Shown here piece after piece: positions 6,631 to 55,675 of a stretch of 64,000 bases of DNA. The stretch is from Heptranchias perlo. Taxonomy: Eukaryota. The translations under genes were made by a program, and so were the position numbers. The stretch is from positions 4,774,001-4,838,000 of the forward strand of contig NC_090340.1 in assembly GCF_035084215.1 (NCBI RefSeq). Direction: 5' to 3'. Below the pieces are notes generated by a model. It was given only the letters and a program-made list of their open reading frames with translations. It ran no database searches and had not been told where the DNA came from. Numbering within the stretch: the first letter of the stretch is position 1; every line of letters begins with the position of its first letter.

Positions 6631-6839
6631 CATTTTCACTCTCTGATAGTTTTATTTTTTTTTGCTGTGAATACTTCGATGGATAAGAAAGTGGAGGAGG
6701 AGCAGCCAATGCCAAAGGAAACAATCCGTCCAGACAAAAGAAGGTTTCTATCTGAGATGGAAAGTCGCCTTATATGTTGTTTTTTTTTTCTCAACGATTA
6801 TATTTCAGCGCCGATGGCCTGACTCAAGAAATGAATGTC

Positions 6840-6961
6840 TTACCCATAAAATGAGTCTGATTTCAAATGGTCCACAATGAGGGTGGTCCCCATCAGAATC
6901 ACCGCTGAACCCAACAGGAAACGACACGACCTGATAGTTTGGAATAGGTCACTGGAGCCAG
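6840..6961 (-). pseudogene. Orphan terminal TM exon of an activating-type (Arg-in-TM) Ig receptor, copy A
   Basis: Reads PGSSDLFQTIRSCRFLLGSAVILMGTTLIVDHLKSDSFYG*. Gap-free paralog at 47892-48013 has the same stop position. The acceptor here is AC instead of AG. Confidence 0.55.
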
Positions 6962-7369
6962 GTCGGTAGCAACAGGATAGAAATTTAAACAAGCATGATG
7001 AGAAAATGCAGAGAGTGAGCAAGTGATAGAGAGAGAGTTAACTGAAGATAGTGAGTTTGTTGGATACAAGGGCTGTGCGTTTAAAGGTTTATTTCGAAGG
7101 AGCTTCAGTTTCAGTGAGATTAGATCACAGGCATTAACGGACCACCGAAACTGATCTACAAATAAACAGATTCAACACCGTGACCGCTCAGTTCTTTGCT
7201 AAGAGCACCCAGCCTCTCTGCAAATTAAACGCTCCCTCAGCCATCAACTAGTCTGAGAACACGTAACGGCATCACCTCTGTGCGGTGTCCTGATAGTAAA
7301 CCATTTTAGCCCGTCAATCCCAGAACAACCAATATCCTTATAGCCATCATCACTGATATCACCTCCTGT

Positions 7370-9640
7370 CTAACTCAGCCTTTAAAATATTCAATGACCC
7401 TGCCTCCACTACTGTCTGGGGAAGGGAGTTCCACAGACTCACAACCATCTGAGAGAAAAAATTTCTCCTAATCTCCATCTAAAATGGGAGACCCCTTATT
7501 TTTAAATTATGTCCCCTAGTTCTAGTTTCTCCCGCAAGGAGTAACATCCTTTCAGGGTCTACCCCTTCACGTCCCCTCAAGATCTTAAATGTTTCAATAA
7601 GATACCCTCTCATTCTTCTAAACTTAAATGAAGACAATCCCAACTTCTCCAACCTTTCCTCGTAAGATAACCCCCTCAAGCCAGGAATCAGTTCAGAGAA
7701 CCTTCTCTGAACCGCCTCCAAAGCAATTATGTCATTTCTTAAATAAGGAGACCATAACTACACACAGTATTCCAGATGTGGTCTCACCAATGTCCTGTAC
7801 AACTGTAGCAAAACAGCTCTACTTTTATATTCCGTTCCCCTTGCAATAAATTACAACATTTCATTGCCTTCCGAATCGCTTGCTGTACCTGCATACTAAC
7901 ATTTTGTGATTCATGCACTAGGACACCCACATCCCTATGTACCTCAGAGTTCTGTAATCTCTCTCCATTTAAGCAATATACTGCTTTTATATTCCTCCTG
8001 CCAAAGTGAACAAGTTCACATTTTCCCACATTATACTCCATCTGCCAATGTTTTGCCCACTCACTTAACCTATCCATATCCCTTTGCAGACTCATTATGT
8101 CCTCTTCACAAGTTACTTTCCTACCTACCTTTTTATCATCAGCAAATTTAGCAACCATACATTCGGTCCCTTCATCCAAGTCATTGATATAGATCGCAAA
8201 TAGTTGAGGCCCAGCACTGATCCCTGTGGCACTCCACTCGTTACATCTTGCCAACCTGAAAATTACCCATTTATGCCTACTCTCTGTTTCCTGTTAGCTA
8301 ACCAATCCTTTATCCATGCTAATATCTTACCCCCTACACCATGAGCTTTTATCTTGTGTAGTAACATTTGATGTGGCACCTTGTCAAATGCCTTTTGGAA
8401 ATCCAACTATAACAAACCCCGAGGATCCCCTTTATCCACGTTGCTTGTTACTTCCTCAAAGAACTGTAGTAAATTAATCAAACACGATTACCATTTCACA
8501 AAGCCGTCTTGACTCTGCCTGATTGCATTGAGATTTTCTAAGTGCCCTGCTATAACCTCCTTCATAATAGATTCTAGCATTTCCCAATGACAGATGTTAA
8601 GCTAACTGGCCTGTAGTTTCCTGCTTTCTGTCTCCCACCGTTCTTGAATAGAGGAGTTACATTCGCTATTTTCCAATCTGATAGGACCTTTCCAGAATCT
8701 AGGGAATTTTAGAAAATTAATACCAATGCATCTACTATCTCTGCAGCCATTTCTATTAAGACCCTGGGATGAAGTCCGTCAGGACCTGCGGACTTGTCAG
8801 CTTTCAGTTCGAATAATTTTAAGTTCCTCCCTCCCTTTCATCTCATGATTCACAATTATTTCTGGCATGTTATTTGATCCTCTACGGTGAAAATGGACTT
8901 ACAATATCTGTTCAATTCATCCGCCATTTCCTTCATCTCCATTATTAATTCCCCAGACTCACTCTGTAGAGGACCAATGCTCATTTAACTTAATCTTTTC
9001 CATTTTAAGTACCTGTGGAAATTCTTACTATCTCTCTTTATATTTCTGGATAGCTTTCTCTTATACTCTAATTTCTCCCTCCTTATTATTCTTTTAGTCA
9101 TTCTTTGTTGTTTGTTTTATTTCCTGACCAATCTTCTTACCTGCAAATAATCTTCGTGGAGTTGGATGCTTATTCTTTAAATTTGATGCTGTCTTTAACT
9201 TCCTTAATTAACCAGGGATGGTCCGTCTTTCCCCCGGAGTCTTTCTTTCTCACTGGCATGTATCTTTGCTGAGTGTTATAAAATATCTCATTAAATGTCT
9301 GCCACTGCATCTCCACTGACCTATCCCTTAACCTAATTTCCCAGTCCACTTTAGCCAGCTCTGTCTTCATGCCCTCATAATTGCCATTATTTAAGTTTAA
9401 AACACTGGTCTTGGACCTACTCTTCTCTCCCTCAAACTGAATGTGCAATTCAATCATATTGTGATCACTGCTACCTGGAGGCTCCTTTACAATGAGGTAA
9501 TTAATTTATCCTCTCTCATTGCACATTACCAGATATAGAATAGCCTGCTCTCTGGTCGGCTCTGGAACGTGCTGCTCTAAGAAACTGTCCAAAAGCACTC
9601 TACGAACTCACCTTCCAGGCTACCTTTGCCAATCAGATGT
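7370..9640 (-). mobile_element. CR1 LINE ORF2 fragment (endonuclease end through RT)
   Basis: Minus-strand ORFs 7479-7721, 7784-8254 and 9170-9457 carry CR1 ORF2 motifs (FADD, WQMEYNVGKC). Confidence 0.9.
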
Positions 9641-10820
9641 CATGCTTTGTTCCACCCTTCTCACCTCTCCTTTGAAACTGTTCTTCTCTACCACTCACCC
9701 AAGACTTAACCTCGAGTTTCAAACTGAAGTATCCTCCCTCCTTACCTGCCTCGCCGTCTGCACTGAGCGACTGCTCTTCCTGCTGATTTCAAACTCCATC
9801 TTAACTCACCTTGCCCTCTACCCTGTGACTTCACTGCCCTCCTCTCCTCTCTGAAACTTGCCCTTAATAAACTGTCCTATCCGTATTCACGGCCATCCCC
9901 TCGACCTTGCCATTTCACGTGGCCTCCTTAGTCCCAATGTCTCAATGACAAACAAGGCCAATTCTGATCATTTCCTTATATCCCTCATCTCTCGTCCCCC
10001 GCGCCGCCCCACCCCCGAACCCCACTTCCTTCTGTGTCTATCTGCGTAAAAAAAAAACTCTCCCCAAGTCACTTTCAACGGCACATTCAAATTCCCAACT
10101 GCCGAGCCTTTGGCCCTCCATTTGCCACGATACCTCTGATGCTCTCAATCACCCACACATCTCCGTCTTTGACACCTTTTTCCGCAATAAAACCCTTACT
10201 TTTTACATCCTGTTAATTCCCCGGGTACGGCCCTCAACATCGCTACGTCAAGACAAAAGGGTTCTGACTTCAACGTTTCTGGTGGACAATTTGTTTCGCC
10301 ATTCATAATCAGATCTGGCTGGAATACATCAAGCACTATTGTGCACTGCTCTCCTGTGCCAAATCTGCTCACTACTTCTAGACCATTCAAGAATGGAAAT
10401 AGAACCGTCTCTTCTCTTCTCCACTATCGACCATCTCCATGAACCAATCTTTCCTGCCCCCAAAACACCTTCGTTTCCAACAAGTGTAAGGAACTCATGG
10501 CCTTTTTGGTCAGTGAGAATGAGACTGTGCATTTTGCTGCCTCTGCTGTATCCCTCCCTTCCCAGAACTCACCAAGTCAACTTTCCCACAGGTTTCCCCC
10601 TACCCTAGCCCTGAACCGACGTCTTTCTCTAGTTTATATCCTATCTCCCCTCATGACATCTCCAAGCTCATCTTATCTATGAGACCCACCTCCTGCTCTC
10701 TCGACCCTATTCCCGTTAAACAGGTGACCACCCAACTTCCTTTCCTGAGCTTCATGCTAGATGAAATTCTATATTGTTCATTTTTCTGTGGTACTGTGCG
10801 CCCTCGCTTTCAAAACTGCA
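9640..10820 (+). mobile_element. Degenerate L2 LINE ORF2 fragment
   Basis: GHPLDLAI and SDHFL endonuclease motifs plus the PTSCSLDPIP motif typical of L2 ORF2. Confidence 0.75.
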
Positions 10821-12423
10821 TTCAGTCTGAATTGTTCCAATTTACCGAGGTATCTATGGTTTTATTGTGTCCTGGGTGTCCTGACTATCTTCTCACCTCC
10901 TGACAAACTCTGAATCCAGTCATGAGCACCAAGAAGTCGAACCTTCTAAAAAGTTACCAAACGGGGACTAAACCTTGAGAAACATGTTTTATCATTATGT
11001 TTAGATTCAATTTCATAACTTCTATTAATGTGGCTGGTGTCCAAAGACCCCATCAATTTCAACCACCAAGTTCTGTTGAATGTCAGGGGTATTCTCTCCA
11101 GTCGGTGTGTACCTGCCTTGGTACAAAGGGACTTGTGTAATCAAAAATGCAATTTTCTGCCGATTTTCCCCTCCAGAACGCCGGGATTTTGGGTCAATTG
11201 TAGCGAACGATCCAAGCTCAGGTCAGCCAACTCAGAACAGAGCAGGGTTCGAACCTGCGAACTTCAGCTCTTTGTGGTCCAGTACTTCACCGCGTGATGA
11301 ATGGGGACAGAGCGAAAAAGCCAGATACAGACCGCATTCACGACACCTGCACATGCGTATCTGCAACAGTTTGGCCGGCGATGCGATCGGTGAAGCGCTG
11401 TTGCAATTAGAAACTTTTCACGTAATTCAAAATCGGTCCATTTTCCCGCGGTCAGCAATGAGGTCTGGGTCATTGTAAATTTCAGCGTATTGTCATATCT
11501 ACGTACACAAACATCTGTCATAAAAGTGAACCGGTTCATTGAGGCTGCTGCATCAGATAACTTCTGGAGCGCCTGACTGTAACACTCAGTCCCAGATTAT
11601 CTTCAACATCTCTCGATGTTCTGAACTCTTCAGTGTCTCCCGCTGACTTACAGCAAACGAGTGATCGATTTCATCTCTGTTGCTCACAATGTCTATACGT
11701 GATGTGTTGCGATACCTCTCAGCTCTGGCCATTATTTGCAAAGCTTTATTTATATATACCTATCTGTTAAGTACGAAAATGTGAATAATAAGTCCATTAG
11801 CATTGTGGAGGTAGCTTATGTTCAATGTTTATTGTAATTTTCACATTTCCTTTCGTTCTACTTCTGCCGCATTATTTCCTCCCTTTTAATCCCGACGATC
11901 ACGATCCCTGACTATAACCTGTGCTTGTGTTAATTTCTGACAGTTTGTAATGGGCGGAGAGCCGGCCAGGACGGGATTTTGGATTCGTGTGCAGACAAAA
12001 GGAAAACATTTATGCCATTCAAGATAGGATCTGCCGAGTTTCCCCTGATGAATGTAGGTTTCCACGACTCTGGAGTCTATTATTGCAGCCTGAGAGATTG
12101 GAGAGGAAAGATTTCGAGCAGGAATGGGACTGACCTTGTGTATGATGAGTATCGCTGAGGGTTAATGGACCTTCGTAAAATTCTATGAGGATAGATTAGA
12201 GAATATTTAACAAAGATCAGCAATGATGCGCTTTATGACAGGACGTTTGATGTTTCTCTCAGTTCGGTTCGGTGCGGCTCCTTTCCCCCTATTTGCAGTG
12301 AATCCTGTCAGTTCACACAGAGCAGCACCGAGGCAGTGGAATTCAGATTGTCTCACTTCAGTCAATCGTTGTTCTCTTATCCCGTATCATTTATATAAAC
12401 CTGTTTTTAACTTTTCTCATTAA

Positions 12424-13030
12424 TTCTCGGGATGTGGACATCGCTGGCACGGTCGGCATTTATTGTCCATTCCTAGTTACCAAGGTGGCGGTGGGTCTTC
12501 TCCTTAAACCACTGCAGTCCATGTAGTGAAGGTGCTCCCACAGTGATGTTAGGTAGGGAGTTCCAGGGTTTTGACTAAGCGATGATAAAGCAAGGGCGAT
12601 ATATGTCCAAGAAAAGATGACGTGTGACTTGGAGTGGGGGAACGTGGAGGTGATGTTGTTCCCATGCACCTGCTGCCCTGATCCTTCTAGGTGCTGGAGG
12701 CCTCGGGTTTGGGAGGTGCTGTCGAAGAAGCCTGGGCGAGTTGCTGCAGTGCATCCTGTAGATGGTGCACACTGCAGCCACTGTGCACCGATGGTGGACG
12801 AAATATAAGGTGGTGGAATAAGTGCCGATCAAGCAGACTGTTTTTGTTCTGGATATTGTCGAGCTTCTTGAGTATTGTCGCAGCTGTGCCATCCAGGCAA
12901 GTGGAGAATATTCCATCAAACTTCTGACTTGTCGGTGGTGGTGCCGCTTTGGGAAGTTAGGAGTGAGTTAGTCTCCGAGGAATAACCAGCGTCTGACCTG
13001 CTCCAGGAGCCGCAGCTTTTATATGGCCAT
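12424..13030 (-). mobile_element. LINE family A 3' fragment in V-C1 intron (shared by all three copies)
   Basis: Same fragment at the same intron position at about 26810-27400 and 56484-57095. Confidence 0.85.
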
Positions 13031-13639
13031 TTATATCACTTATTCACAAATCGAAAGTGTTGAATGAGATTGTTTTTGTTTATTTTTATTGCTACATCGA
13101 ATAAGGAAAAAATGTCTTTGACTCTGAATCGAATTCTGCCTGGAATCATTTCTTTCAACCCCCTGATTACTGAGGGGCCGCTCCCGACCCACCTTTTACC
13201 GCACTCCGAAGTCCAACATTAACTTTCCCAGAGTGGCTGGCAATTCAAACGTGGGGCACAACAATGAGATTGTCAGTATCTATTAACAACTAGATCCAAG
13301 TACTAACACACAGACAGATATAAAGGACAGGGCGGGGGGCGCTGGAGGGCAGCCTGTGAAGACAAGTAGCTTGCAATGAAATAATCAACTGCACAGAGAG
13401 GATTGAACAGGCTAAACACTAAACAACATTTTACTGCATAAAATAATAGATTTTATTTGCACTATGGATTCATTGTGGTTGCTAATAGATTTTATTTTCA
13501 GTGATAGATATATTTGCTCTGATAGATTTGATTTCGATTGAAAGATTTGTTTCTGTGGGAAATAGATTTTAGATGTTGACAGATGGCAATGGGTTTTTCA
13601 AGAATTGGATAAGGAACATTTACATGAAACAGAACGAAA

Positions 13640-14900
13640 CTCCGTGCTACGAAGCCTGTGAGTGGATCATCTGCTGTTCAAGCTCAGTCTGTGTCTCCAG
13701 TAAGATCTCGGCGGTGAAGGCAAAGTATCTCCCATGGATGCCAGTGCCAGAGTGGGAATCGTGATTCAAAAATTGATGGAGAAAATGGTTTGGAAGACAC
13801 ATTAGTGACACAAGATCATCTAAGGAAAAGAAGTTAACAAGGATCTGTAATCACCTCAGGTCACGTTGTGATAACTTTCTCACTGGGGAGTGATGACATT
13901 TATGGATGTACGAATTGTTGAGATGCAGTTTAGGATGGAGACGAAGGTACTTTTATGACCGGAATGGGATCACTGTCAGAAACCTCGAGAACATTCTGGA
14001 TTAATTACATTTTGAACTCGGGGCTGAAATATTCCTGATCAAGCAGTTAGTGACTGATGAGTTTACAGTTCTCACCGAGCGACAGGTTAGTTGAAGGAGG
14101 GTAGGGAGCTGTCGGCATCTGAGTGGAGTTGAGCTCCTGAAAATCAAATACCAGGTTGTATATGGGGATTTTAAGAGATCTAAGAGCAATAGTCGAGTGT
14201 TGAAAAGGATGGAGATAAAGTTAATTCGAACATTGAATAATTACTCCCGCAATTCCAATATGAAACTGCGACCTCGTCAGTCTGAAGTTCTAAAAAACAG
14301 CATGAGGTTCGGGATTATTCTCACATGAGGAATTATTGATAAACCGAACAAGATAAAGTGACATGGAAAGAGAGAAGACAAGGAGCAAGTGTGTGGGAGG
14401 GTTGAGGGGAGTGAAAAATAGAGAAGGATTGGACCTTGATCAATTTTTAAATATGAACGATTCGCCCATGGATGAGGCAGATAGATAATGGGGTTCAGGA
14501 TGGAGCGGTATTCCAGATTTGCCGATTTAAAAGCCATTGTCTCGGCCACAGTAGGAGCAGTGCGCGAAATTTTGATGTGAAGAAGGGTGTAAGATTTATT
14601 TACTTGGTGATATCAGTCCTAGATCTCCTGAATCAAAAGACATTAAAGGGAGACTCAGTTGAAGGTATCTGCGGCGAGTCCCACTAGTGATCAAGGGGAA
14701 TAAATGTAGAAAGAGTAAGAGGAGGTTAGAAGATTTTTTTTACGCAAAGGGTTATTAGAGCGTGGGGTAGAACCGCAGAAGGGCAATTGGCGGAAATCAA
14801 ACACAGGGGTTCGGGGGGAATTACAATAATATTGATAGTTGCGGGGGGGTGGCAGGGGACTGGAATGAGGTAGAGATCTCTTTCTGGGCTTAACCTTCTG
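13640..14900 (+). mobile_element. Ancient, highly degenerate CR1 remnant in V-C1 intron
   Basis: Residual FFTQRVIRAW-like codons near 14735-14765; paralogous at about 28000-29270 and 57700-58950. Confidence 0.45.
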
Positions 14901-16732
14901 GAATTTAACCGGAAAGTAAATGGACACGGAACACGGAGACAGTCAAATTTAGCGAGACTCTGCCGATGAATGGTTCACAGGTGGGTCACTCAATGAGGAT
15001 TCATATTGCGCCAGCAAGGCTCCGAGTCGAGAGCGGAGATCCGTCGACTTCCTTGATCAGTGAGAAGTGGTAGAGGCGGATCTCTGCAACTGCAGAATAT
15101 TGGGAGCTTGATAAATTTGATACTACTTTGGCCCCTCTCCCTTTTAATTCGTGATATCGGAAACGGACGAAGACTTGAAATAATTCACACAGAGCGAGAA
15201 CCGGGGTCAGGACCGGAACATTATCTGGGAAATGAATCGAGTGAGTGAGCTCTGGTACAGGACAACTGCACGCGTTTTGGACCTTAACAACGAGTCCCAG
15301 ACTGGAACTGAGACAATAATTTCCTTCATGCTTTTGTATTAATTTATCACTCTGTCAGTGAAAGCATATTATAGAATACTCTCTCCCTATTAGCAACGCA
15401 GAAGCCTATTTAGAACGTCGTTCTAAATCATAGTGAAGCATAAGCAGAAATAGACACCGAGGGCTTTAAGAGATCCCACGGGACGGGTTCGGTTTAACTC
15501 GGACTTAAATTCATTTCAATGCCCAGACATGGGGCCTTCCCGTCAGCGAGTGCTGGATAAAGACAAGAACTAAATAAATATTGCCATGGACTGTTTCAAG
15601 CAAATCAAGCGTTCTTTATTAATACTAAAATGGCGGTAAAATTTCCCTCTTAAAGGGACTCTGCAGATGCTCCAGGCTCTCCCTTCTCGGCGTCTGTTGT
15701 TTCCATTCTCTAATATAATATACGGGTAGTGATTTCAACTCAATTCCTTTAACTCCTTTCCAGTGCCGCTAACTCCTGTGAAGATTACCCGCCTGCACTC
15801 TCCGTCTCTCACACTCCTCTGCACAACGGCTGTTTTTTTCCCCCGAGGAGTTGAACCTAACTTGGTATGAAAATGGCCCCAAAATTACATCTGGGATAAA
15901 CTTGGTAGAAACACGGAGCGAAGAGGGATTGTATCAAGTTTCCAGCTCCTTGATCTCTGTGTATCTGCCGCGTGCCCCATCCCTCTCTGCTGGCTCCAGC
16001 CAACTCCAGCTGCACGGTTCGTGATCCGGGTAAGAGACCCACCTGATCAGCACTGCAGTAAGCTGTATCTGTGTTAAATACAGGAGCCATTCAGGGCTTT
16101 TCTGTCACCACTAATCCGCACCAGAATATTGTCAATGCAGTGCGTTTGAAGGGGCTGAATATGCTCATTGCAATATCACAAAGCATTTGAGGCGGCCACT
16201 CACATTGGTCACCATGCAAGATGGAGTCTTGCGCAATTGAACGGCGGATCCATGGTCAAAATGTAAAAATGAACCATACTTTCGAAACACAGTATCTGAC
16301 GTAACACTCTGAGCGGGGAACCCCATCCCAACTGCCCAGTTCTTCAACTACATGGGCAGGTTCTCAATTGTCTGCTACTGGAGGCGTCCATTAGCGATCG
16401 GTGTCAGGATTGCACTTCTTGAGAAATGTCAATGATCTGGATGAAGGCGTCCACAAGTTCACTGATGGTACAACTATATGTGCTAAAGTCAGAACCATTA
16501 AGGAGAAAACATTTACAATCGGATCGAGATGCGATCGGGGAATCGGCCTGTATCTGGCAGATGTCAATTAATGCAGATAAATGTAGTCTAATACTTGTGG
16601 GCAGGTTTAATACCAAGCATTGTGCACAGTGCTAGGCTCTGAATTAAAGTCTGTTGAGGGGCAAAGATTATTGGGTGTTCGTGTCTGAATCTCCCAAATT
16701 CCACGACTAATGCCGATAGATGATAACCAAAG

Positions 16733-16824
16733 GTACGGTACCATAGTGGTTATGTTACTGGATTAGTAATCCGGAGGCATGGACGACGATTCAGAGTCAT
16801 GAGTCCAAATCCTGCCACGGCAGG
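16733..16824 (+). mobile_element. tRNA-derived SINE head
   Basis: A-box-like taccatagtgg and B-box-like gagtccaaatcc; directly joined to a LINE. Confidence 0.6.
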
Positions 16825-18779
16825 AGCAGCACCAGGCGTACCTAAAAATGAGGTGCCAATCTGGTGAAGCGACAACTCAGGACTACATGCATGTTAAAAA
16901 TGGTATAAACAGAGCTAAGCGATTCCACAACCAACGAAACAGATCAAAGCTCTGCAGTCCTGCCACGTCCAGTTGTGAATGGTGGTGGACAATTAAACAA
17001 CGTAACAGGAGGAGGAGGCTGCGTAAACATCGCCATCCTCAATGATGGCGGAGTCCAGCACGTGAGTGCAAAAGACAAGGCTGAAGTGTTTGCAACTATC
17101 TTCAGCCAGAAGTGCCGAGGGATGATCCATCTCGGCCTCCTCCCGATATCCCCACCATCACAGAAGCCAGTCCTCAGCCAATTCGATTCACTCCACGTGA
17201 TATCAAGAAACGGCTGAGTGCACTGGATACAGCAAAGGTTATGGGCCCCGACAACACCCCAGCTGTAGTGCTGAAGATTTGTGATCCAGAACTAACTGCG
17301 CCTCTAGCCAAGCTGTTCCAGTATAGCTACAAAACTGACATCCACCCGAAAATGTGGAGAATTGCCCAGGTATGTCCTGTCCACAAAAAGCAGGACAAAT
17401 CCAATCCGGCCAATTGCCGCACAATCAGTCTACCCTCAATCAATCAGAAAAGCGATGGAAGGTGTCGTCGACAGTGCTATCAAGCGGCACTTACTCAGCA
17501 ACAACCTGCTCACCGATGCTCAGTTTGGATTCCACCACGACCACTCGGCTCCAGACCTCATTACAGCCTTGGTCCAAACATGGACCAAAGAGCTGAATTC
17601 CGGAGGTGAGCTGAGAGTGACTGCCTTTGACATCAAGGCATCATTCGACCGAGTGTGCCACCAAGGAGACCTAGTAAAATTGAATTCAATGTGAATCAGG
17701 GGGAAAACGCTCCAGTGGCTAGAGTCATACCTAGCGCAAAGGAAGATGGTAGTGGTTATTGGAGGCCAATCATCTCAGCCCCAGGACATTGCTGCAGGGG
17801 TTCCTCAAGGCAGTGTCCGAGGCTCAACCATCTTCAGCTGCTTCATCAATGACCTTCCCTCCATCATAAGGTCAGAAATGGGGATGTTCGCTGATGATTG
17901 CACAGTGTTCAGTTCCGTTTGCAACCCCTCAAATAATGAAGCAGTCGGAGCCCGCACGCAGCAAGACCTGGACAACATCCAGGCTTCGGCTCATAAGTGG
18001 CAAGTAACATTCGCGCCAGATAAGTGACAGGCAATGATCATCTCCAACAAGACAGAGACTCACCACCTCCCCTTGACATTAAACTGCATTACCATCGCCG
18101 AATCCCCCACCATTAACATCCTGGGAGTTACCATTGACCAGAAACCTAACTGGACCAGCCATATAAATACAGTGGCTACGAGAGCAGGTCAGAGGCTGGG
18201 TATTCTGCGGCGAGTGACTCATCTCCTGACTCCCCAAAGTCTTTCCACCATCTACAAGGCACAAGTCAGGAGTGTGCTGGAACACTCTCCACTTGCTTGG
18301 ATGAGTGCAGCTACAACAACACTCAAGAAGCTCGACACCATCCAAGATAAAGCAGCCCGATTGAATGGCACTCCATCCACCACACCACCCTAAACATTCA
18401 CTCACTTCATCACCGGCGCACTGTACCATCCACAGGATGCACTGTAGCAACTCGCCAAGGCTTCTTCGACAGCACCTCCCAAACCCGCGACCTCTACCAC
18501 CTAGAAGGACAAGAGCAGCAGGCACATGGGAACAACACCACCTGCACTTTCCCCTCCAAGTCACACACCATCCCGACTTTGAAATATTCCTTCATCATCA
18601 CTGGGTCAAAATCCTGGAACTCTCTTCCGAACAGAACTGTGGGAGAACCGTCACCATACAGACTGCAGCGGTTCAAGAAGGCGGCTCACCACCACCTTCT
18701 CAAGGGCAATTAGGGATGGGCAATAAATGCCGGCCTCGCCAGCGACGCCCGCATCCCATGAATGATTTTTTTTTAAAAA
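16823..18779 (+). mobile_element. LINE family A insertion specific to copy 1
   Basis: RT motifs and family A tail; absent at the equivalent site in copies 2 and 3 (about 31155 and 60895). Confidence 0.9.
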
Positions 18780-20474
18780 TAGAGTATAAAGATGTTTAGC
18801 CGGGACAAACCGATAGAAACAAAGAGCACCATAATGTCCTTTCCCATTGTCAGCCCTCATCTACAATATTGTGTCCAGTTCTGTTTCCCTCATATGGTGA
18901 GAGTTATTGGGGCATTGGGGAAAAAGTTCAGCGCAGAGCCACTATATTCATACTATTTTAAAAACCCTTAGTTATCACGATAGGTTCAAGGATTTGGGTA
19001 TTTGTACTCTCGAAAAGCGTAGACTTTGGGATACTTAATTGAACGATGAAGGGACTAGTCTGTGCACACGTGGATAGATCACTTGAATTAAATTATTACC
19101 GAGAACGAGGGCTCATGGGTACATGTCATTTAAGCACAGAACACGGTTTGATATCTGGAGGATAGTCTTCTTCCAGAAGGTAACTGAACTTTGGATTAAA
19201 TCGAAGTCTCGTGCAGTGAGTGCGGATTCTCTGCAAAGTTACAAAAGGAGCTCGACGAGTTCCTGAGGGAGGCTGATATCGTGGTGTACAAAGGATAGGT
19301 GTGATGTTGCAAGACGCACCTCAAGGTCAATGTTATTTACTGGAACTCGTTTCTCATCACCTTCGGGTCGGAGAGAAAGCACCTATAACTCTGTGAGGGA
19401 TTTTGCCTCTCCCTGGAGACCAAACGGCACAAACAATCACGGGGAGAGAGACAGACAGACACATCCGTACATAAAGACACGGCCCCCTCCACACCCACAC
19501 CCTCCCCCCACAACACACACACACAAATATTTACATACACATGATGAACAAAACTACATAATCATTAATTAAATGCGATTATTAATCCGAATTAAATGTT
19601 GATATTATCAGACATGGAAAGTCCCTGTGTGCTTTGCATTCCGCTGTACTTTGGCCGCTTGATGCTGAGATACGATGGAGGCGCATTAGTATTTCGGTAA
19701 GAGACGATAGCTGTGATATGTCGGTGCTGCCTGATATCTGACGTTGATTAAATATTTCGCAATATCTCGCCTATAAAATGCTGAAATTCCACTTTCTGTG
19801 TCCCTTTCAGCTGACGGGAACAGTACATCCCTCTACCCCCTGGTGTCGGGGTGTGCAGCAGGCGGGTTAATAATTCTAGTGCTGGTAATTCTCGTCAAGC
19901 GATGCAATTTAGTCAGAACTGAAGGTAAGACCTGACACGATCCTGATTCAGAATTAAGTTTGTTAGTTACATTTCAGCATGGCGGCAGCGAGGGCGAGGG
20001 CACGGAGTATGCGGCGTCAACTGGGATCTAGATTTTGGGAGCGGTGTCCGTCACACGAAGTGAGTTTATATTCCTGGGGTCGAATTTTGTTGCGAGGGCA
20101 AAACTTAAACCCAAGAGATCCCTCAGAATAATTGCAGCAGGTCTGAACATTAAAGCCACCTGTAATTTCGGTTCGTGTTTTTACAGCAACTGAAGGTGTT
20201 GAACTTCCCCTACATCGCCCCGGGACTCTGAGACTGAACCATGCATCGGAAAGGGGTCAAAGAATCATAGAATCATAGAATCATAAAAAGGTTGCAGCAC
20301 GGAAGGAGGTCATTCGGCCCATTGAGTCCGCGCCGGCTCTATGCAAGATCATTCCCGCTTGTCCGACTCCCCCGCCCTATTCCAACGACTTGTTTTCAAG
20401 TAATCATCCAGTTCCCTTTCGAAGGCCATGATTGAATCTGCCTCCACCACCCGCTCGGTCAATGCATTCCAGAT

Positions 20475-25957: not shown

Positions 25958-26012
25958 ATGTCTGCGCTTGATATGCTGCTGTACCTCGCAGCCCTGGCCA
26001 TTATTTACACAG
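25958..26012 (+). CDS. Copy 2 exon 1: signal peptide MSALDMLLYLAALAIIYT
   Basis: ATG, hydrophobic core, phase-1 CAG|GT donor; conserved in all three copies. Confidence 0.75.
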
Positions 26013-26208
26013 GTTTTTGTATACGTGCCTTTTAAATATTAAAGTGTGAATAATAAGTCCATTAGCAGTATGGAGGCAGCTTCTCTTAAATGTTTATTGC
26101 AGTTTACTCATTTCCTTTCGTTCTAATTCTGCCGCATTATTTCTTCCCTTTTAATCCTCACGATCACTATTCCCGACTGTAACCTGTGCTTGTGTTTATT
26201 TCTGACAG

Positions 26209-26529
26209 TTATTAATGGGACCGCTCTCACAGTGACTCAGTTCCCCGCCCGCGTGACTGCGGTGAAAGGTACAAATGTCTCCATTTATTGCTTTTTCGCG
26301 CTTTTGGATCGCAACGCATTGGTGGATGTTTACTGGCGGAGAGCCGGCCAGGACGGGATTTTGGATTCGAGTGCAGACAAAAGGAAAACATTTACACCAT
26401 TGAAGAAAGAATCTGCCGAGTTTCACCTGCTGAATGTAGGTTTCCAGGAATCTGGAGTCTATTATTGCAGCATCAGAGATTGGAGAGGAAAGATTTCCAA
26501 CGGGAATGGGACTGACATTATTGTGTATG
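26209..26529 (+). CDS. Copy 2 exon 2: V-set Ig domain with germline-joined J-like GNGT motif
   Basis: LTVTQFP...NVSIYC...VYWRR...ESGVYYC...GNGTDIIVY; ctgacag| acceptor and |gtgagt donor, phase 1-1. Confidence 0.93.
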
Positions 26530-29500
26530 GTGAGTATCGCTAATGGAACTTCGTAAAATTCTATGGGTATAGATTGGAGAATATTTAACAAAGATCAGAA
26601 ATGTATTTTCTGACAGGACTTTTGATGTTTCTCTCAGTTCGGTGCGGTGCAGCTCCTTTCCACATATTTGCAGTGAATCCTGTGAGTTTACACAGAGCAG
26701 CACCGATTACCCTGCACGGGGCAGTGGAATTCAGATTATCTGACTTCAGTCAATCGTTGTTCTCTTATCCCGTATAATTTATATAAATCTGTTTTACCTT
26801 TTTTTCATTAATTCTCTGGAAGTGGACATCGCTGGCACGGTCGGCATTTATTGTCCATTCCTAGTTACCAAGATGGCGGTGGGTCTGCTCCTTGAACCAC
26901 TGCAGTCCATGTAGTGAAGGTGCTCCCACAGTGCTGTTAGGTAGGGAGTTACAGGATTTTGACTCAGCGATGATAAAGCAAGGAAAATATATGTCCATGT
27001 GAGCATGATGTGTGACTTGGAGGGGGGGATCTTGGAGGTGATGGCGTTCCCATGCACCTGCTGCCCTTGTCCTTCTTGGTGGCGGAGGCTTCGGGTTTGA
27101 GAGCTGCTGTCGAAGCAGCCTTGGCGAGTTGCTTCCGTGCATCCTGTAGATGGTGCGCCGGTGGTGGACGGTATATAAGGTGGTGAAATAAGTGCCGACT
27201 AAGCAGACTGTTTTTGTTCAGGATATTGTTGAGCTTCTTGACTGTTGTAGCTGCGCCATCCAGGCAAGTGGAGAATATTCCATCAAACTTCTGACTTGTC
27301 GGTGGCGGTGCCGCTTTGGGAAGTTAGGAGGTGAGTCAGTCGCCGAGGCAGACCCAGCGTCTGACCTGCTCGAGGAGCCGAAGCATTTATGTGGCCATTT
27401 ATATCACATATTTACAAATCGATAGTGTTGAATGAGATTGTTTGTGTTTACTTTTATACCTATATCGAATAAGAAAAATGTGTCTTCGATTCTGAACAGA
27501 ATCCTGCTTGGAATCACTTCCTTCAATCCTCTAATCACTGAGGGACCGCTCCCGACCCACTTTTTACCGCACTCCAAAGACCAACAGTAACTCTCCCCGA
27601 GTGCTTGCCAATTCAAACGTGGGACACAACAGTGAGATTGTCAATATCTATCGCCAAATAGATACAAGTACTAACACACAGACAGATAAAAAGGACAGGG
27701 GGTGGGGGGTGTAGAGGAGAACACGACAAGGCGAGGAGCGAGCAAAGAAAAATCAACTGGACAGAGAGGATTGACAGGCTAAACACTGAACAACATTTTA
27801 CTGCATAAAACAATAGATTTTATTTACACTTTGGATTCATTGTGCTTGCTAATAGATTTGATTTACAGAGATAGATAAATTAGCTCTGATAGATTTGTTA
27901 TCGATTGATAGATTTGTTTATATGGGAAATAGATTTTAGATGTTGACAGGTGGGAATGGGTTTTTCAAGCATTGGATAAGGAACATTTACATGAAACAGA
28001 ACTATGTGCCGCGAGGCCTGTGAGTGGATCATTTGCTGTTCAAGCTCAGTCTGTGTCTCCAGCAAGATCTCGGCGGTGAAGCCAAAGTATCTCCCATGGA
28101 TCCCGGTGCCAGAGTGGTAATCGTGATTCAAAAAAGGGATGGAGCAAATGGTTTGGAAGACACATTAGTGACACAAGATCATCGAAGGAAAAGAAGTTAA
28201 CAAGGATCTGTAATCATCACCTGCAGGTCACGTGGAGATAACTTTCTCACTGGGGAGTGATGACATTTAGTGGATCGACCAATTGTTGCGATGCAGTTTG
28301 GGATGCAGACGAAGGTACTTTTATGACCGGAATGGGATCACTGTCATATACCTCGAAAAAAATATGGATTAATTACATTTTGAACTCGGGGCTGAAATAT
28401 TCCTGATCACTCAGTTGGTGACTGATGAGTTTACTGTTCTCACCGAGCGACAGGTTAGTTGAGGGAGGGGCCGAGCTGTGGGCATCTGAAAGGAGTTGAG
28501 ATCCTGAAAATCAAATACCGGCTTGTAAAATGGGATTTTAATCGATCTAAATGCAAAAGTCGAGTGTTGAATAGGATGGAGATAAAGTTAATACGAACAT
28601 TGAATAATTACTCCCGCAATTCTAATATCAAACTTTAACCTCGTCAGTCTGAAGTTCGAACAAACAGCATGAGGTTCAGGATTATTCTCAAATGAGGAAT
28701 TGTTGATAAACCGAACAAGATAAAGTGACATGGAAAGAGAGAAGACAAGGAGCGAGTGTGTGGGAGCGTTGGGAGGGAGTGAAAAATACAGAAGGATTGG
28801 ACCTTGATCATTTTTTAAATATGATCGATTGGCCCATGGATGATGCAGATAGATAATGGGGTTTAGGATGGAACGGAATTCCACATTTGCCTATTTAAAA
28901 GCCATTGTCTCGGCCACAGTAGGAGCAGTGCGCGAAATTTTGATGTGAATGAGAGGGTGTAAGATTTATTTCCTTGGTGATATCCGTCCTAGATCTCCTG
29001 AGTCAAAAGAAATTAAAGTGAGACCCAGTAGACGGGATCTCCGACGAGTCCCACTGGTGATCAAGGGGAATAAATGTAGAAAGAGTAAAAGGATTTTCGA
29101 AGATTTGTTTCACTCAAAGGGTTATTAGAGCGTGGGGTAGATCGGCAGAAGGGTTATTGAAGGAAATCAAACACAGGGATTAGGGGGGAATTACATTAAT
29201 ATTAATGCGGGGGTGGGCAGAGTACAGCCCTGAGGTAGAGAACTCTTTCTGAGCTTAAACTTCTCTAATTTAACCGGGAAGTAAATGGACACGGAACACG
29301 GAGACAGTAAAATTCAGCGAGACTCTGCCGATGAATGGGTCACAGATGGGTCACTCAATGAGGATTCATATTGCGCCAGCAAGGATCCCAGTCGGAAACT
29401 GAGATCCGTCGACTTACTTGATCCTTAAGAAGTGGTGGATACGGATCTCTGTAACTGCAGAATATTGGGAGGTTGGTAAATTTGATCCTACTTTGGCGCC

Positions 29501-30128
29501 TCTCCCTTTTAATTCGTGATATCGGAAACGAACAAAGACTTGAAATAATTCACACAGAGCGAGAACCGGGGTCAGGACTGGAACATTATCTGGGGAATGA
29601 ATCGAGTGAGTGAGCTCTGGTACAGGACAACTGGACGCGTTTTAGACCTAAACAACGAGTCCCAGACTGGAACAGAGACAATAATTTCCTTCATGCTTTT
29701 GTATTAATTTATCACTCTGTCAGTGAAACCATATTATAGAATACTGTCTCCCTTTTAGCAACGCAGAAACCGATTTAGAACGTAGGCCTAAATCACAGTG
29801 AAACACCAGCAGAAATAGACACCGCGAGATTGAAGAGATCCCACGGGACTGTTTCGGTTTAACTCGGACTTAAATTCATTTCAGTGCCAAGACATGGGGC
29901 CTTCCCGTCACCGAGTGCTGGATAAAGACAAGAACGAAATAAATATCGCCATGTTCTGTTTCAAGCAAATCAAGCGTTCGTTATTAATTCTAATATGGCG
30001 GTAAAATTTCCCTCTTAAAGGGACTCTGCAGATGCTCCATGCTCTCCCTTCTCGCCGTCTGTTCTTTCCTTTGTCCAATGTAATATACGAGTAGTGATTT
30101 CAACTCAATTCCTTTATCTCCTTTCCAG

Positions 30129-30410
30129 TGCCGCCAACTCCTGTGAAGATTACCCGTCTGCTCTCTCCGTCTCTCACACTCCTCTGTACAACGGCCGTTT
30201 TTTTCCCCGAGGAGTGAAACCTCACTTGGTATCAAAATGGCTCCAAGATTACATCTGGGATAAACTTGGTGGAAACACGGAGCGAAGAGGGATTGTATCA
30301 AGTTTCCAGCTCCCTCATCTCTGAGCAGAGTGGGACGGTTTATATCTGCCAGGTGTCCCATGCCTCTCTCCCGGCTCCAGCCAACGCCAGCTACACGGTT
30401 CGTGATCCGG
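30129..30410 (+). CDS. Copy 2 exon 3: C1-set Ig domain with premature TGA
   Basis: LTLLCTTAVFFPEE*NLTWYQN...GLYQVSSSL...YICQVSHASL; phase 1-1, 282 nt. Confidence 0.9.
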
Positions 30411-30699
30411 GTAAGAGACCCACCATCTCACCACTGCAGTAAGCTGTATCTGTATTACATATAGGAGTGATTCAGGGACTTACAGTGTCAAAAAAGCTTT
30501 TGAGGCGGCCCCTCACAGTGCTCACTGTGCAAGAAGGATTCCTCCGCAATTGAACGGCGGATCCATGTTTGGTTGGGGAATTAATTGCCTTCTCGTTGAC
30601 AGTGGGTAGACTTTAATAGTTGTGGGACAATGCAGCCAGTCAGGATACGTGGAGGAGTAACAGAAGTTGGTACTTGCTGGTCAAAATGTTGAAATGAGC

Positions 30700-31760
30700 C
30701 ATACTTTCGAAACACAATACCTGACGTAATGCAATGAGCGGGGAAACCCATCTCCACTGCCCAGCTCTTCAACTACATGGGCAGGTCCTCCATTGTCTGC
30801 TACTAGAGGGGTCCATTAGCGATCGCTGTAAGAATTGCTCTTCTTGATTCATATCAATCATCTGGTTGAAGGCGGCCACTAGTTCACTGATGGTACAAAT
30901 ATCTGCTGATGTCAGAACCCTTAAGGAGAAAACATTAACAATCGGATCTAGATGCGATAGGGGAATGGGCCTGTATCTGGCAGATGACATTTAAAGTAGA
31001 TAAATGTAGTCTAATGCATGTGGGGAGGTTTAATACCAAACATGTGTGTACAGTGCTAGGCTCTGAATTAAAGTCTGTTGAGGGGCAAAGAGACATGGGT
31101 GTTAGTGTCTGAATCTCTAAATTCCACGACCAAGGCCGAGGGGTGATGACCAAAGCTAGTAGAATATAAAGATGTATAGCCGGGACAAACCGATAGAAAC
31201 AAAGAGCACCATAATGTCCTTTCCCTTGAGCAGAACCCATCTGCAATATTGTGTCCAGTTCTGATTCCCTCATATGGTGAGAGTTATAAGGGCATTGGGG
31301 AAAAAGTTCAGCGCAGAGCCACGAGATTGATATTATTTTAAAAACCCTTAGTTATCACGATAGGTTCAAGGATTTGGGTATTTGTACTGTCGAAAAGCGT
31401 AGACTTCGGGATATTAATTGAACGATGAAGGGACTGGACTGTGTACACGTGGATAGATCACTTGAATTAAATTGTTCGCGAGAACGAGGGCTCGTGGGTA
31501 CATGTCATTTAAGCACAGAATAAGGTTAGATATCTGGAGGATAGTCATCGTCCAGAAAATCACTGACCTTTGGATTAAGTCGAAGTCTCGTGTGGTGAGT
31601 GCGGATTTTCTGCAAAGGTACAAAAGGAGCTGGACGAGTTCCTGAAGGAGGCTGATATCGTTGTGTACAAAAGATAGGTGTGATGTTGCATGACGGCCCT
31701 CAAGGTCAATGTTATTTACTGGAACTCGTTTCTCATCACCTTAGGGTCGGAGAGAAATCT
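30700..31760 (+). mobile_element. Ancient CR1 remnant in C1-TM intron
   Basis: WQMTFKVDKC-like and KELDEFL-like remnants; paralogous at about 16260-19360 (split) and 60430-61480. Confidence 0.6.
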
Positions 31761-32209
31761 CCTATAATTCTGTAGGGGATTTTGCCTCTCCCTGGAGACC
31801 AATCGGCACAAACAATCACGGGGAGAGAGACAGACAGACACATCCATACAAAAAGACACCGCCCCCTCCCGCTAAACCCCACCCCCCACACCCCCCGGCC
31901 CCCACACCCCCACAACAAGCACACAAATATTACATACACATAATGAACAAAACTGCATAATCATTAATTAAATACAATTATTAATCCGAATTAAATGCTG
32001 ATATTTTCAGGCATGGAAAGTCCCGGTGTGCTTTACACTGCGCTGTACTTTGGCCGTTTGATGCTGAGATACGATGGAGTCGCCTTAGTATCTCGATGAG
32101 AGGCGATAGCTGTGATATGTCGGTGCTGCCTGATATCTGACGTTGATTAAATATTTCGCAATATCTCGCCTACAAAATGCTAAAATTCCAATTTCTCTGT
32201 CCCTCTTAG

Positions 32210-32323
32210 CTAACGGCAACAGTACTTTCCTCTACTCCCTGGTGTCGGGGTGTGCAGCAGGCGGGTTAATAATTCTCGTGCTGGTAATTCTTGTCAAGCG
32301 ATGCAATTTCGTCAGAACTGAAG
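32210..32323 (+). CDS. Copy 2 exon 4: transmembrane exon (uncharged TM)
   Basis: ANGNSTFLYSLVSGCAAGGLIILVLVILVKRCNFVRTE; tag| acceptor and |gtaaga donor, phase 1-1. Confidence 0.9.
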
Positions 32324-32919
32324 GTAAGAACTGACACGATCCTGATTCAGAATTAGGTTTGTTAGTTAAATTTCAGCACGGCGGCAGCGAGGGGGAGGGC
32401 ACGGTGTCTCGGGCCCAGACTGGGATCTAGATTTTGGGAGCGGTGTCCGTTACACTAAGTGAGTTTATGTTCCTGGGGCCGAATCTTGTGACGAGGGTCA
32501 GACCTTAAACCCAAGAGATCCCTCAGAATAATTTCAGCAGGTCTGAACATTAAAGCGACCCGTAGTTTCGGTTCGAACTTAGTGCTTTGCAACAACTGAA
32601 GGTGGTGATGTGAATCGTTTACAGTAAATGTAGGGTTGTGTCGGGAGGGGCGACAAATCTGGGGTAAAGGGCGGTGGAACTGGTGATGGGAATGTGACAC
32701 GTGGTATTCGGTTGCAAAAGGCTTCGGATCTCGCCCAGCAACAGTACCGGATGTGACGGGTCAAGTTCTAATCAGGAGAATTGAGTGACCGTTCAGATCA
32801 TTTTCTATTGATCGGTGATTCTGATCACTTTGCGGGAATGTTGGGTATATTTTGGCGGACACATCGCGCATCTGGTTCATGGTGAAATTGACATTGGTCT
32901 CAATTTATTTCTCTGCTAG

Positions 32920-32963
32920 ACACGGAGATTAGTGAGGAGAGAACCGGCCACTTCGAGGAGCAG
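32920..32963 (+). CDS. Copy 2 exon 5: cytoplasmic exon DTEISEERTGHFEEQ
   Basis: Pyrimidine tract with tag| acceptor and |gtcagt donor, phase 1-0; near-identical exon at 62642-62685. Confidence 0.8.
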
Positions 32964-33494
32964 GTCAGTGTCATGCTTGTGTAACGAGAAATAGACTGCT
33001 ATTGCCATCTAATGCATATTTATACCACATTTAAACCGGTATCACTAGGCCATCAGGACGGCTCTCAATAACTGCGGAGCACACCGTCAACACTTGCGGG
33101 TTTATTGTTCCCCAGAGACCTTCGTTCAGCTGAAAGTGTGGTCTCTGCCCTGTCAGTGCCGCGATTGTATCTGTATTAATGCAGCACTCCAATTGTGGCA
33201 GGCGCCGTTGTAGATATTCGTGTCTTGTCAGTGCGGTCGATTGGCTATTCACCTATGGGAGCGTCATAGTTTTGTTCGATCCTGTTCTCACTTGACATCT
33301 CCACCCATGAACTTTCCAGCAGGGTCTGTGGGTGTTGACTGGGACGGAATGCTGGCCGAGATTGTCCCCATCCTGACCCAAAGGCACCGAAACCAATTGT
33401 CTATCTTGAGATGAGCAAGCTCAGAACTCGGAAGTGCATTAACTACTCAACAGCACAGGGGCCAGGCCTTGACCTATATTTGTCAATGTATATT

Positions 33495-35245
33495 CTCAAT
33501 GATGGCGGAGTCCAGCACGTGAGTGCAAAAGACAAGGCTGAAGCGTTTGCAACCATCTTCAGCCAGAAGTGCCGAGTGGATAATCCATCTCAGCCTCCTC
33601 CCGATATCCCCACCATCACGGAAGCCAGTCTTCGGCCAATTCGATTCACTCCACGTGATATCAAGAAACGGCTGAGTGAACTGGATACAGCAAAGGCTAT
33701 GGGCCCCGACAACATCCCAGCTGTAGTGCTGAAGACTTGTGCTCCAGAACTAGCTGTGCCTCTAGCCAAGCTGTTCCAGTACAGCTACAACACTGGTATC
33801 AACCCGACAATGTGGAAAATTGCCCAGGTATGTCCTGTCCACAAAAAGCAGGACAAATCCAATCCGGCCAATTACCGCCCCATCAGTCTACTCTCAATCA
33901 TCAGCAAAGTGATGGAAGGTGTCGTCGACAGTGCTATCAAGCGGCACTTAATCACCAATAACCTGCTCACCGATGCTCAGTCTGGGTTCCGCCAGGACCA
34001 CTCGGCTCCAGACCTCATTACAGCCTTGGTCGAAACATGGACAAAAGAGCTGAATTCCAGAGGTGAGATGAGAGTGACTGCCCTTCACATCAAGGCAGCA
34101 TTTGACCGAGTGTGGCACCAAGGAGCCCTAGTAAAATTGAAGTAAATGGGAATCAGGGGGAAAACTCTCCAGTGGCTGGAGTCATACCTAGCACAAAGGA
34201 AGATGGTAGTGGTTGTTGGAGGCCAAGCATCTCAGCCCCAGGGCATTGCTGCAGGAGTTCCTCAGGGCAGTGTCCGAGGCCCAACCATCTTCAGCTGCTT
34301 CATCAATGACCTTCCCTCCATCATAAGATCAGAAATGGGGACGTTCGCTGATGACTGCACAGTGTTCAATTCCATTCGCAACCCCTCAGATAATGAAGCA
34401 GTCCGAGCCCGCATGCAGCAAGACCTGGACAACATCCAGGCTTGGGCTGATAAGTGGCAAGTAACATTCGCGCCAGATAAGTGCCAGGCAATGACCATCT
34501 CCAACAAGAGAGAGTCTAACCACCTCCCCTTGACATTCAACGGCATTACCATCGCCGAATCCCCCACCATCAACATCCTGGGGGTCACCATTGAAAAGAA
34601 ACTTAACTGGACCAGCCATATAAATACCGTGGCTACGAGAGCAGGTCAGAGGCTGGGTATTCTGCGGCGAGTGACTCACCTCCTGACTCCCCAAAGCCTT
34701 TCCACCATCTACAAGGCACAAGTCAGGAGTGTGATGGAATACTCTCCACTTGCCTGGATGAGTGCAGCTCCAACAACACTCAAGAAGCTCGACACCATCC
34801 AAGATAAAGCAGCCCGCTTGATTGGCACCCCATCCACCACCCTAAATATTCACTCCCTTCACCACCGGCGCACTGTGGCTGCAGTGTGCACCATCCACAG
34901 GATGCACTGCAGCAACTCGCCGTGGCTTCTTCGACAGCACCTCCCAAACCCGCGACCTCTACCACCTAGAAGGACAAGGGCAGCAGGCGCATGGGAACAA
35001 CACCACCTGCACGTTCCCCTCCAAGTCACACACCATCCCGACTTGGAAATATATCGCCGTTCCTTCATTGTGGCTGGGTCAAAATCCTGGAACTCCCTTC
35101 CTAACAGCACTGTGGGAGAACCGTCACCACACGGACTGCAGCGGTTCAAGAAGCCGGCTCACCACCACCTTCTCAAGGGCAATTAGGGATGGGCAATAAA
35201 TGCCGGCCTTGCCAGCGACGCCCACATCCCGTGAACGAATAAAAA
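33495..35245 (+). mobile_element. Young LINE family A insertion in last intron of copy 2
   Basis: RT ORF continuous except one TAA at 34143-34145; flanked by tatatt at 33489-33494 and 35256-35261; absent in copy 3. Confidence 0.93.
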
Positions 35246-35464
35246 TATATATATATATATTGCAGAGAATTTCTCCGGCTGGGAATTATTTTCCTTCCTT
35301 GTCCTTATCCGGCCTTTTATTACACCGCCAGCGCCATTTGAGCAATCACCTGCACTGATCAGACTTACCCAATCCTTAACCGATGCCATTGGGTTTTAGT
35401 GGCCCTGTACGGTGCTGTTTGTGATTTGATGTGAAGCTAATCTTTCTCCAAAAACTTTCTTCAG

Positions 35465-35635
35465 GCTGTGGGAGGAAGAGAGGACGGGAGTCCGTCTTAC
35501 GCTGTTATCAACTTCAGCGGTCACAGGAACATTGGAAAACCCAGAGGTGAGGAAGATGGAACCGTCTATGCCCAGGTACAGTCGAGAAACGGAGCAGCCC
35601 ATTCCAACCAGGAATGGTCCGGTACTGGCGTCTGA
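35465..35635 (+). CDS. Copy 2 exon 6: terminal cytoplasmic exon with PSYAVI and ITSM TVYAQV
   Basis: ctttcttcag| phase-0 acceptor; 56 aa plus TGA; gap-free paralog at 63448-63618. Confidence 0.85.
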   Translation, partial: AVGGREDGSPSYAVINFSGHRNIGKPRGEEDGTVYAQVQSRNGAAHSNQEWSGTGV

Positions 35636-47891: not shown

Positions 47892-48013
47892 TTAGCTTAA
47901 AAAGGGTACTGATTTGAAACGGTCCACAATGTGGGTAGGTCCCATTAGATTGAGCATTAACCCCACCAGGAAATGGCACAGCCTGATGGTTTGGAATCGG
48001 TCAGTAGACTGTG
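47892..48013 (-). pseudogene. Orphan terminal TM exon of an activating-type Ig receptor, copy B
   Basis: cttctgttgctttccag| acceptor, phase 1; (A)QSTDRFQTIRLCHFLVGLMLNLMGPTHIVDRFKSVPFLS*; 21/40 aa identical to 6840-6961. Confidence 0.55.
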
Positions 48014-48487: not shown

Positions 48488-48630
48488 GACGGTGTAAAAT
48501 GGTTGATAGCGAATTGGCCGCCCGTTTTACATTGACTTCAATGGAAATAAAAAATGGGGAGAGATGTAAAAAGGGCTGCCGATTCGATATCAGCCGTTTT
48601 AGACTGTCGCTCAAATTTAAATTTACCCCA
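48488..48630. mobile_element. Palindromic MITE-like element
   Basis: 44-bp imperfect inverted arms at 48488-48531 and 48565-48608. Confidence 0.6.
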
Positions 48631-55620: not shown

Positions 55621-55675
55621 ATGTCTGCACTTGATGTGCTGCTGTACCTCGCAGCCCTGGCCATTATTTGCACAG
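55621..55675 (+). CDS. Copy 3 leader exon MSALDVLLYLAALAIICT
   Basis: ATG at 55621 and phase-1 CAG|GT donor. Confidence 0.75.

Follow-up and report, generated by a model that had tools for sequence, protein, structure and literature searches.

The window analysed here, meaning the whole 64,000-nucleotide stretch of Heptranchias perlo DNA, holds three plus-strand copies (A, B, and C) of a leader-V-C1-transmembrane (TM)-tail gene amid many LINE-like repeats, along with two minus-strand blocks that lie ahead of gene leaders, 4.7 kb from that of gene A and 7.6 kb from that of gene C. The features are as follows.

6838..6843, minus strand: splice donor GTAAGA, enclosing the TAA earlier read as a stop
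6844..6961, minus strand: pseudo-exon A' (118 nt), a TM exon of activating type from the VJ-C1 receptors; begins in phase 1 and ends in phase 2 (the end inferred)
6962..6963, minus strand: dead splice acceptor, AC where the paralog C' has AG
6964..7280, minus strand: upstream flank, likely an intron remnant, in common with the 48 kb copy (66-79% identity, ~330 nt shared)
7366..8819, strand not assigned: LINE-like insertion past the shared flank, with many copies in the window
10815..10913, strand not assigned: further part of the shared flank, with homology to 48388-48489 (nhmmer E 1e-5)
11689..19924, plus strand: gene A, inhibitory-type VJ-C1, broken (leader donor CT, V short by ~115 nt, C1 frameshift, TM exon uncharged)
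25958..35870, plus strand: gene B, inhibitory-type VJ-C1 (TGA in C1; LTYASL Tyr changed to Asn)
47896..48013, minus strand: pseudo-exon C' (AG acceptor kept at 48015-48014; CT at the donor position, 47895-47894; His in place of Arg; TM with polar and Pro substitutions)
48014..48489, minus strand: upstream flank of C', with a transcription-factor-like motif cluster at 48285-48393
55621..63873, plus strand: gene C, inhibitory-type VJ-C1 (leader-V-C1-TM open with AG/GT ends; LTYASL Tyr changed to Ser)

Each plus-strand gene has one V exon and one C1 exon. In gene B, 26209-26529 forms a single AG/GT-bounded exon that encodes V plus a J-like motif and ends G-N-G-T-D-I-I-V-Y, with the C1-set domain next; Pfam scores for the VJ-C1 family are 26.6 bits for V-set and 37.7 bits for C1-set. 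The V exon of gene B shares 99% identity with P0001, a RefSeq protein of H. perlo. Exon ends in genes B and C were taken for the first four exons only, and the cytoplasmic exons of gene A were not found. The gene bodies are 88-91% identical to one another (~90% for 11953-16249 versus 55995-60295), and the minus-strand blocks (~70% identity) are older duplicates than these bodies. Because the upstream blocks (6826-7280 versus 47878-48400) are ~70% alike and the adjoining gene bodies ~90% alike, later homogenisation or replacement of the gene bodies is suggested. The V exon of gene C carries a compensated frameshift of ~22 codons (55990-56080, plus strand), leaving the frame open and that part of the domain scrambled. 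The Tyr of the LTYASL ITIM, present in P0001, P0002, and P0012, has been lost from genes B (35716-35790, plus strand) and C (63690-63780, plus strand) through different changes. A long, degenerate CA-rich tract (50000-51500) lies ahead of gene C, and a short minisatellite-like array (6460-6610) lies downstream of A'.

A preliminary description of this DNA had reported a minus-strand peptide closed by TAA at 6959-6840, and the same reading was obtained here: the 39-residue GSSDLFQTIRSCRFLLGSAVILMGTTLIVDHLKSDSFYG followed by TAA, with the Arg retained and the Asn of the NxxR motif gone. A search with the V exon returned P0003 and P0004 and, from their cluster, P0011, which are H. perlo leader-V-C1 proteins (all protein models being automatic annotations). 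These three run from C1 straight into A-S-T-D-R-F-P-T-(L/F)-N-F-C-R-F-L-L-G-L-M-V-I-L-L-G-T-T-I-I-V-D-H-L-K-S-V-P-F, so that the intact VJ-C1 paralogs whose existence the preliminary description had proposed to check do carry the exon directly after C1. A' matches the TM exon of P0003, P0004, and P0011 at 24 of 37-39 residues; against P0011 the shared residues number 24/39 for A' and 25/39 for C'. When the intact TM exon was searched against the window by tblastn, A' and C' were the sole significant matches (E ~1e-11). Among the 4 candidates that a word-index search gave for the 43-aa TM region, P0003 and P0004 were the only matches; profile searches reached further. On this evidence, A' is almost certainly a TM exon from the VJ-C1 family to which the plus-strand genes belong, and comes from a member with the Arg and without an ITIM, as had been proposed.

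The true ends of the exon emerge from four sequencing runs, all of one sample, that were compared with 6560-7365 at 80% likeness; the labelling of runs as RNA is a guess. No RNA record was listed for 6620-7360 itself, a blank that was given no weight. A paralog contig covering 6847-6923 (12 differences in 77 nt) occurs in two of the three probable-RNA runs and contains no intron letters. Read by hand, its 5' loose end gives T-D-R-F-P-T-L-N-F-C, as in P0003, and its 3' loose end, after F, gives stop-S-N-T-P-D-D-K-L-A-A, that is, the early stop of P0003 and then the tail exon of P0011. A paralog DNA contig, in contrast, follows the genomic flank to 6819. Because the probable-RNA contigs join the tail exon at this point and the DNA contig continues, the exon is internal and ends most simply between GG and GTAAGA; the phase-2 donor is deduced, since the DNA of the intact genes is known only as short contigs. 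The TAA occupies positions +2 to +4 of the GTAAGA donor. It does fall at the same codon in both window copies, as had been claimed, but as part of a splice site and not as a conserved stop, and the 10-aa tail is therefore an artefact of a misread donor; intact tails are 8 aa long via a different stop or 32 aa long via a further exon. The Arg-TM gene represented by P0003 and the probable-RNA contig has its stop two codons before the exon end and is nevertheless spliced to the tail exon, which gives an 8-residue tail versus 32 in P0011. A further TM-exon paralog is found on a 2198-nt DNA contig, which reads N-L-R-R-L-L-L-G-L-M (by hand) with N-x-x-R kept, has a downstream flank colinear with A', and matches none of the fetched proteins.

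The gapless alignment of 6840-6961 with 47892-48013, which holds the second copy C', was recovered (87/122 nt), and so was the count of six synonymous codon changes. The selection that these changes had been taken to imply did not hold up: they stand beside 18 non-synonymous changes, and the Nei-Gojobori dN/dS between the copies, a comparison that had itself been recommended, is 0.60 (bootstrap 0.25-1.36; Fisher p 0.24), which is not significant and leaves room for residual constraint. Nor is the exon set apart from indel-bearing flanks. The gap-free diagonal passes both of its ends (~7029 to 6823), and exon identity (84/119 nt, 70.6%) is no better than the 66-79% of the upstream intron and flank. 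Thus neither dN/dS nor the comparison of exon with flank supports selection on A' and C'. The splice lesions of the two copies are complementary, with a dead acceptor and live donor in A' and a live acceptor and dead donor in C'. The Arg near the start of the TM is present in A' and replaced by His in C', the TM of which is degraded. In the A copy, LINE-like insertions split 10815-10913 from the rest of the flank. Two candidate further copies were rejected: a 43-nt match in 46400-46900 (E 0.25-0.34), which gave no TM profile match, and a DNA contig with 10 differences at 7112-7169, which equals the 48 kb copy of the window (10/58).

At its locus, A' (6844-6961) is very likely non-functional. 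The AC acceptor at 6963-6962 noted earlier was confirmed by a DNA contig that covers all 806 nt of 6560-7365, differs only at 6714 and 7316, and leaves both AC and the GT donor (6843-6842) unchanged. As had also been reported, there are no Ig exons upstream: no minus-strand leader, V, or C1 was detected in the window, and no tail exon in the 6.8 kb downstream of A' (best score 22 versus 44 for the positive control). It is very unlikely that A' is still used, either by a minus-strand gene with Ig exons beyond the window or via a non-canonical acceptor. The 39-codon open frame, the Arg, the hydrophobic core, the retained GT donor, and a score of 24.8 bits on a TM profile from other sharks would all suit such use; against it, the acceptor is AC, the only other AGs in 6930-7040 end at 6952 and 6931 and give out-of-frame reads, and minus-strand V and C1 are absent over 57 kb upstream, as is a tail exon over 6.8 kb downstream. 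That A' is a chance hydrophobic frame or a transposon fragment has a negligible probability, even though the pattern is common. Pfam gave no meaningful match for either orphan frame, the hydropathy (KD19) of A' is 1.75 and of C' 1.47 versus 2.33 for the intact paralogs, 107 of the 2190 stop-free segments in the six frames of the window are equally hydrophobic, and 8 other such segments fit the same crude pattern, in which an N-terminal Arg goes with a tail no longer than 15 aa, several being antisense copies of one LINE. A' stands above chance because it is homologous to intact proteins (tblastn E 9e-12 in the window) and to the profile built from other sharks only. Its homology to the TM of family proteins is exon-bounded and only four DNA-run records cover the exon at >=80%, so the transposon origin named earlier as a refutation is excluded. 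The internal evidence first put forward was nonetheless weak, because of the 18 non-synonymous codons, the equally conserved flank, the His of the paralog, and the commonness of the pattern.

The upstream flank could also be an enhancer or promoter for the adjacent plus-strand gene, with the exon as its passenger. We regard this as improbable, and it would be compatible with the pseudo-exon reading. Both copies precede the leader of a gene, the flank is conserved as much as the exon, and within 110 nt (48285-48393) the 48 kb copy contains GC-box, E-box, C/EBP-, RUNX-, CRE-, ETS-, and TATA-like motifs. However, the A copy gave no match to any of the 9 motif patterns, the block is missing at gene B, and 70% identity may be plain neutral decay. 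Gene B likewise has no TM-exon remnant of the A'/C' kind. A' is best described as an orphan remnant and an ordinary pseudo-exon, and its minus-strand orientation is compatible with a possible head-to-head gene.

Within Heptranchias, the intact relatives of A' form pairs with ITIM-bearing proteins. V domains of the Arg-TM and ITIM partners are identical at 105/106 positions for P0003 and P0012 and at 102/106 for P0011 and P0002, versus 94/106 between the two Arg-TM proteins P0003 and P0011. LTYASL occurs in P0001, P0002, and P0012, and the tail Tyr is absent from P0003 and P0011, whose tails (8 and 32 aa) contain neither ITIM nor Tyr. In an alignment with the last motif of the ITIM exon, the P0011 tail has Ala in place of Tyr, at a score reached by 0/2000 shuffles for five of the nine inhibitory tails and by 6-21/2000 for the other four. 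Since this tail is the ITIM exon without its Tyr, a gene of the inhibitory type was likely the origin of the activating one.

Profile searches found relatives of the family in sharks, rays, and the elephant shark. Of the 177 fetched proteins, 12 exceeded 8 bits on a TM profile built from 5 proteins (the 12 include these training sequences), and the carriers belong to seven shark species: Heptranchias, two Chiloscyllium, Hemiscyllium, Scyliorhinus, Carcharodon, and Heterodontus. Among the named ray and chimaera proteins in the 177 fetched, none has the TM module, in a set where 50% clustering hides short forms. The Arg is present in 11/12 matches and missing in P0082, and the acidic C-terminal end of the TM is likewise kept, with D/E before H in 11/12 and D in both A' and C'. 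The Asn three residues ahead of the Arg is found in P0003, P0004, P0011, P0029, and P0105, and is lacking in A', C', and the other 7 profile matches; by species, it is present in Heptranchias, Chiloscyllium plagiosum, and Hemiscyllium and absent from the catshark, white shark, horn shark, and C. punctatum copies. On a profile made from non-Heptranchias proteins only, A' scores 24.8 bits and C' 3.3 bits.

A V-C1 tree was reconstructed from 50 of the 177 proteins, chosen by us, of which two were dropped for lack of the anchor motif; the resulting 48 rows, none a named PRARP or NKp30 sequence, gave a tree with 8 open branches of 45. The 10 rows with the TM module, among them P0082 without the Arg, need 9 changes on it versus a shuffled mean of 9.3, and supported sister pairs of Arg and uncharged TMs include P0003 with P0012 (99/94) and P0029 with P0025 (100/100). 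Because the module is scattered on the tree and sister to uncharged-TM proteins, the TM module appears conserved while the ectodomain tracks its local partner. Such a pattern is what gene conversion or exon shuffling would be expected to produce.

Several known systems resemble this family in part. As described in excerpts of PMC2413239 and PMC6557307, receptors with an NxxR TM that use FcR-gamma (LILRA2, PIR-A, NKp46, GPVI, OSCAR, FcalphaR, and Xenopus XFL TM1) share with the shark proteins the N-terminal TM Arg, the acidic TM end, and the short tail, as well as NxxR itself in several shark copies, ITIM partners, and clusters rich in aberrant exons. The shark ectodomain differs from theirs in consisting of a joined VJ plus C1 and not of LRC- or FcR-type domains, in having no DYT, and in its variable Asn. 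LILR/KIR-like LRC-type Ig domains are not what the shark genes encode; V-set and C1-set domains are found instead. SIRP alpha/beta, in the portion of PMC12975943 available, likewise combine a VJ-type V with C1-set domains and have ITIM and charged-TM partners with similar ectodomains; they differ in having two C1 domains where the shark family has one, and SIRP-beta uses DAP12 where the shark TM has an N-terminal Arg (PMC12975943, same portion). Several family members are auto-named SIRP-alpha-like, and sequence matches in the PDB (E 1e-14 to 1e-15) are all distant: IgA, IgM, UrIg2 (9dmx, E 5e-15), and SIRP-alpha (2wng, E 1e-14). The pairing of SIRP-beta with DAP12 goes through a Lys, and NKp30 has a single V domain. 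The non-rearranging VJ(-C1) genes UrIg/UrIg2, NKp30, and PRARP, as excerpted from PMC10751288, PMC12227049, and PMC11599192, have V and a GxG J in one exon followed by C1, as here; these excerpts make no mention of activating/ITIM pairing, and UrIg2 has nine C1 domains versus the single one here (PMC12227049, in part). In its predicted working, the family resembles paired receptors of the LILRA/NKp46 and SIRP-beta types; its domain architecture excludes it from both and places it in the loosely defined group of non-rearranging VJ-C1 genes.

Taken together, 6844-6961 is quite probably an acceptor-broken, likely non-functional copy of a TM exon that intact sister genes splice behind VJ-C1, yielding a short-tailed receptor predicted to activate via an ITAM adaptor such as FcR-gamma. 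According to excerpts of PMC2413239 (the motif and XFL expression) and PMC6557307 (the motif and the acidic residue), FcR-gamma associates with the NxxR TMs of both mammalian LRC receptors and Xenopus XFL, one XFL receptor depends on FcR-gamma for surface expression, the motif is traced back to amphibians, and an acidic C-terminal residue of the TM is an added feature. The TM of P0003, P0004, and P0011 reads N-F-C-R and ends I-V-D-H. Before the TM, the intact proteins read D-R-F-P-T and lack the DYT consensus given in the available part of PMC6557307, and no paper on shark FCER1G was found in the literature searched. It is likely, as a prediction, that the intact carriers activate via an ITAM adaptor. 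Having no signalling Tyr of its own, the receptor would pair its TM Arg with the Asp in the TM of a dimer of FcR-gamma (or CD3-zeta) and would signal on binding a ligand shared with an SHP-recruiting ITIM partner, such that intact shark proteins whose TM has N-F-C-R or N-I-F-R and is acidic at its end would oppose their ITIM partners. Gene conversion or shuffling of TM exons may keep the V domains of partners alike, and birth-and-death turnover with LINE insertion may have stranded both window copies, which would then have decayed. A less probable account, which we consider unlikely, accepts the identity of the exon and holds that the intact carriers are not FcR-gamma-coupled activators and instead are decoys or use CD3-zeta, DAP12, or homodimers. 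The variable NxxR Asn and the carrier without Arg would agree with this, as would P0003, which stops 8 residues past the TM as does the non-signalling SIRP-gamma (PMC12975943, in the portion available); the Arg shared by 11/12 profile matches across 7 species, the conserved acidic TM end, the removal of the tail Tyr, and the pairing with ITIM forms speak against it.

The exon at this locus is very likely dead and is ordinary, and its value is that of a pointer to the paired VJ-C1 family. Public names given to the intact relatives, such as 'H-2 class I-like', 'CD276 homolog', 'tapasin-related', and 'NCR3LG1-like', hide a family found across sharks, in which VJ-C1 partners predicted to activate and to inhibit have almost the same V domain. 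The genes named here can now be used to ask whether paired signalling of the FcR-gamma type is older than the divergence of cartilaginous from bony fish. They also allow the question of whether non-rearranging VJ-C1 receptors, like antigen receptors, use ITAM adaptors for signalling. A bolder and rather doubtful proposal, which we offer tentatively, is that this may be an undescribed family of shark paired receptors whose VJ-C1 ectodomain is non-rearranging and resembles that of antigen receptors, with an activating TM exon homologous to the NxxR/FcR-gamma module of frogs and mammals. If so, the TM module would be as old as the last common ancestor of jawed vertebrates and would be a mobile exon that was joined to new ectodomains again and again, and the family would be a living model of an adaptor-coupled TCR/Ig precursor and a candidate system for NK or myeloid recognition in sharks. 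No description of the family, or of an NxxR TM in sharks, was found in the literature searched, mostly from outside subscription journals. Studies of NCR3 and PRARP in sharks and of VJC1 genes in Xenopus, or their supplements, may already include the family.

Some of the fetched proteins depart from the common layout. The TM exon is absent and the tyrosine tail kept in P0005, P0013, P0026, P0027, and P0179, and C1 is absent from P0007, P0032, and P0033; these are either exon-skipping isoforms or annotation artefacts. Finally, P0047, P0063, and P0070 have an Arg near the start of a different type of TM that the TM profile does not score, and one of the three has a tyrosine-bearing tail.
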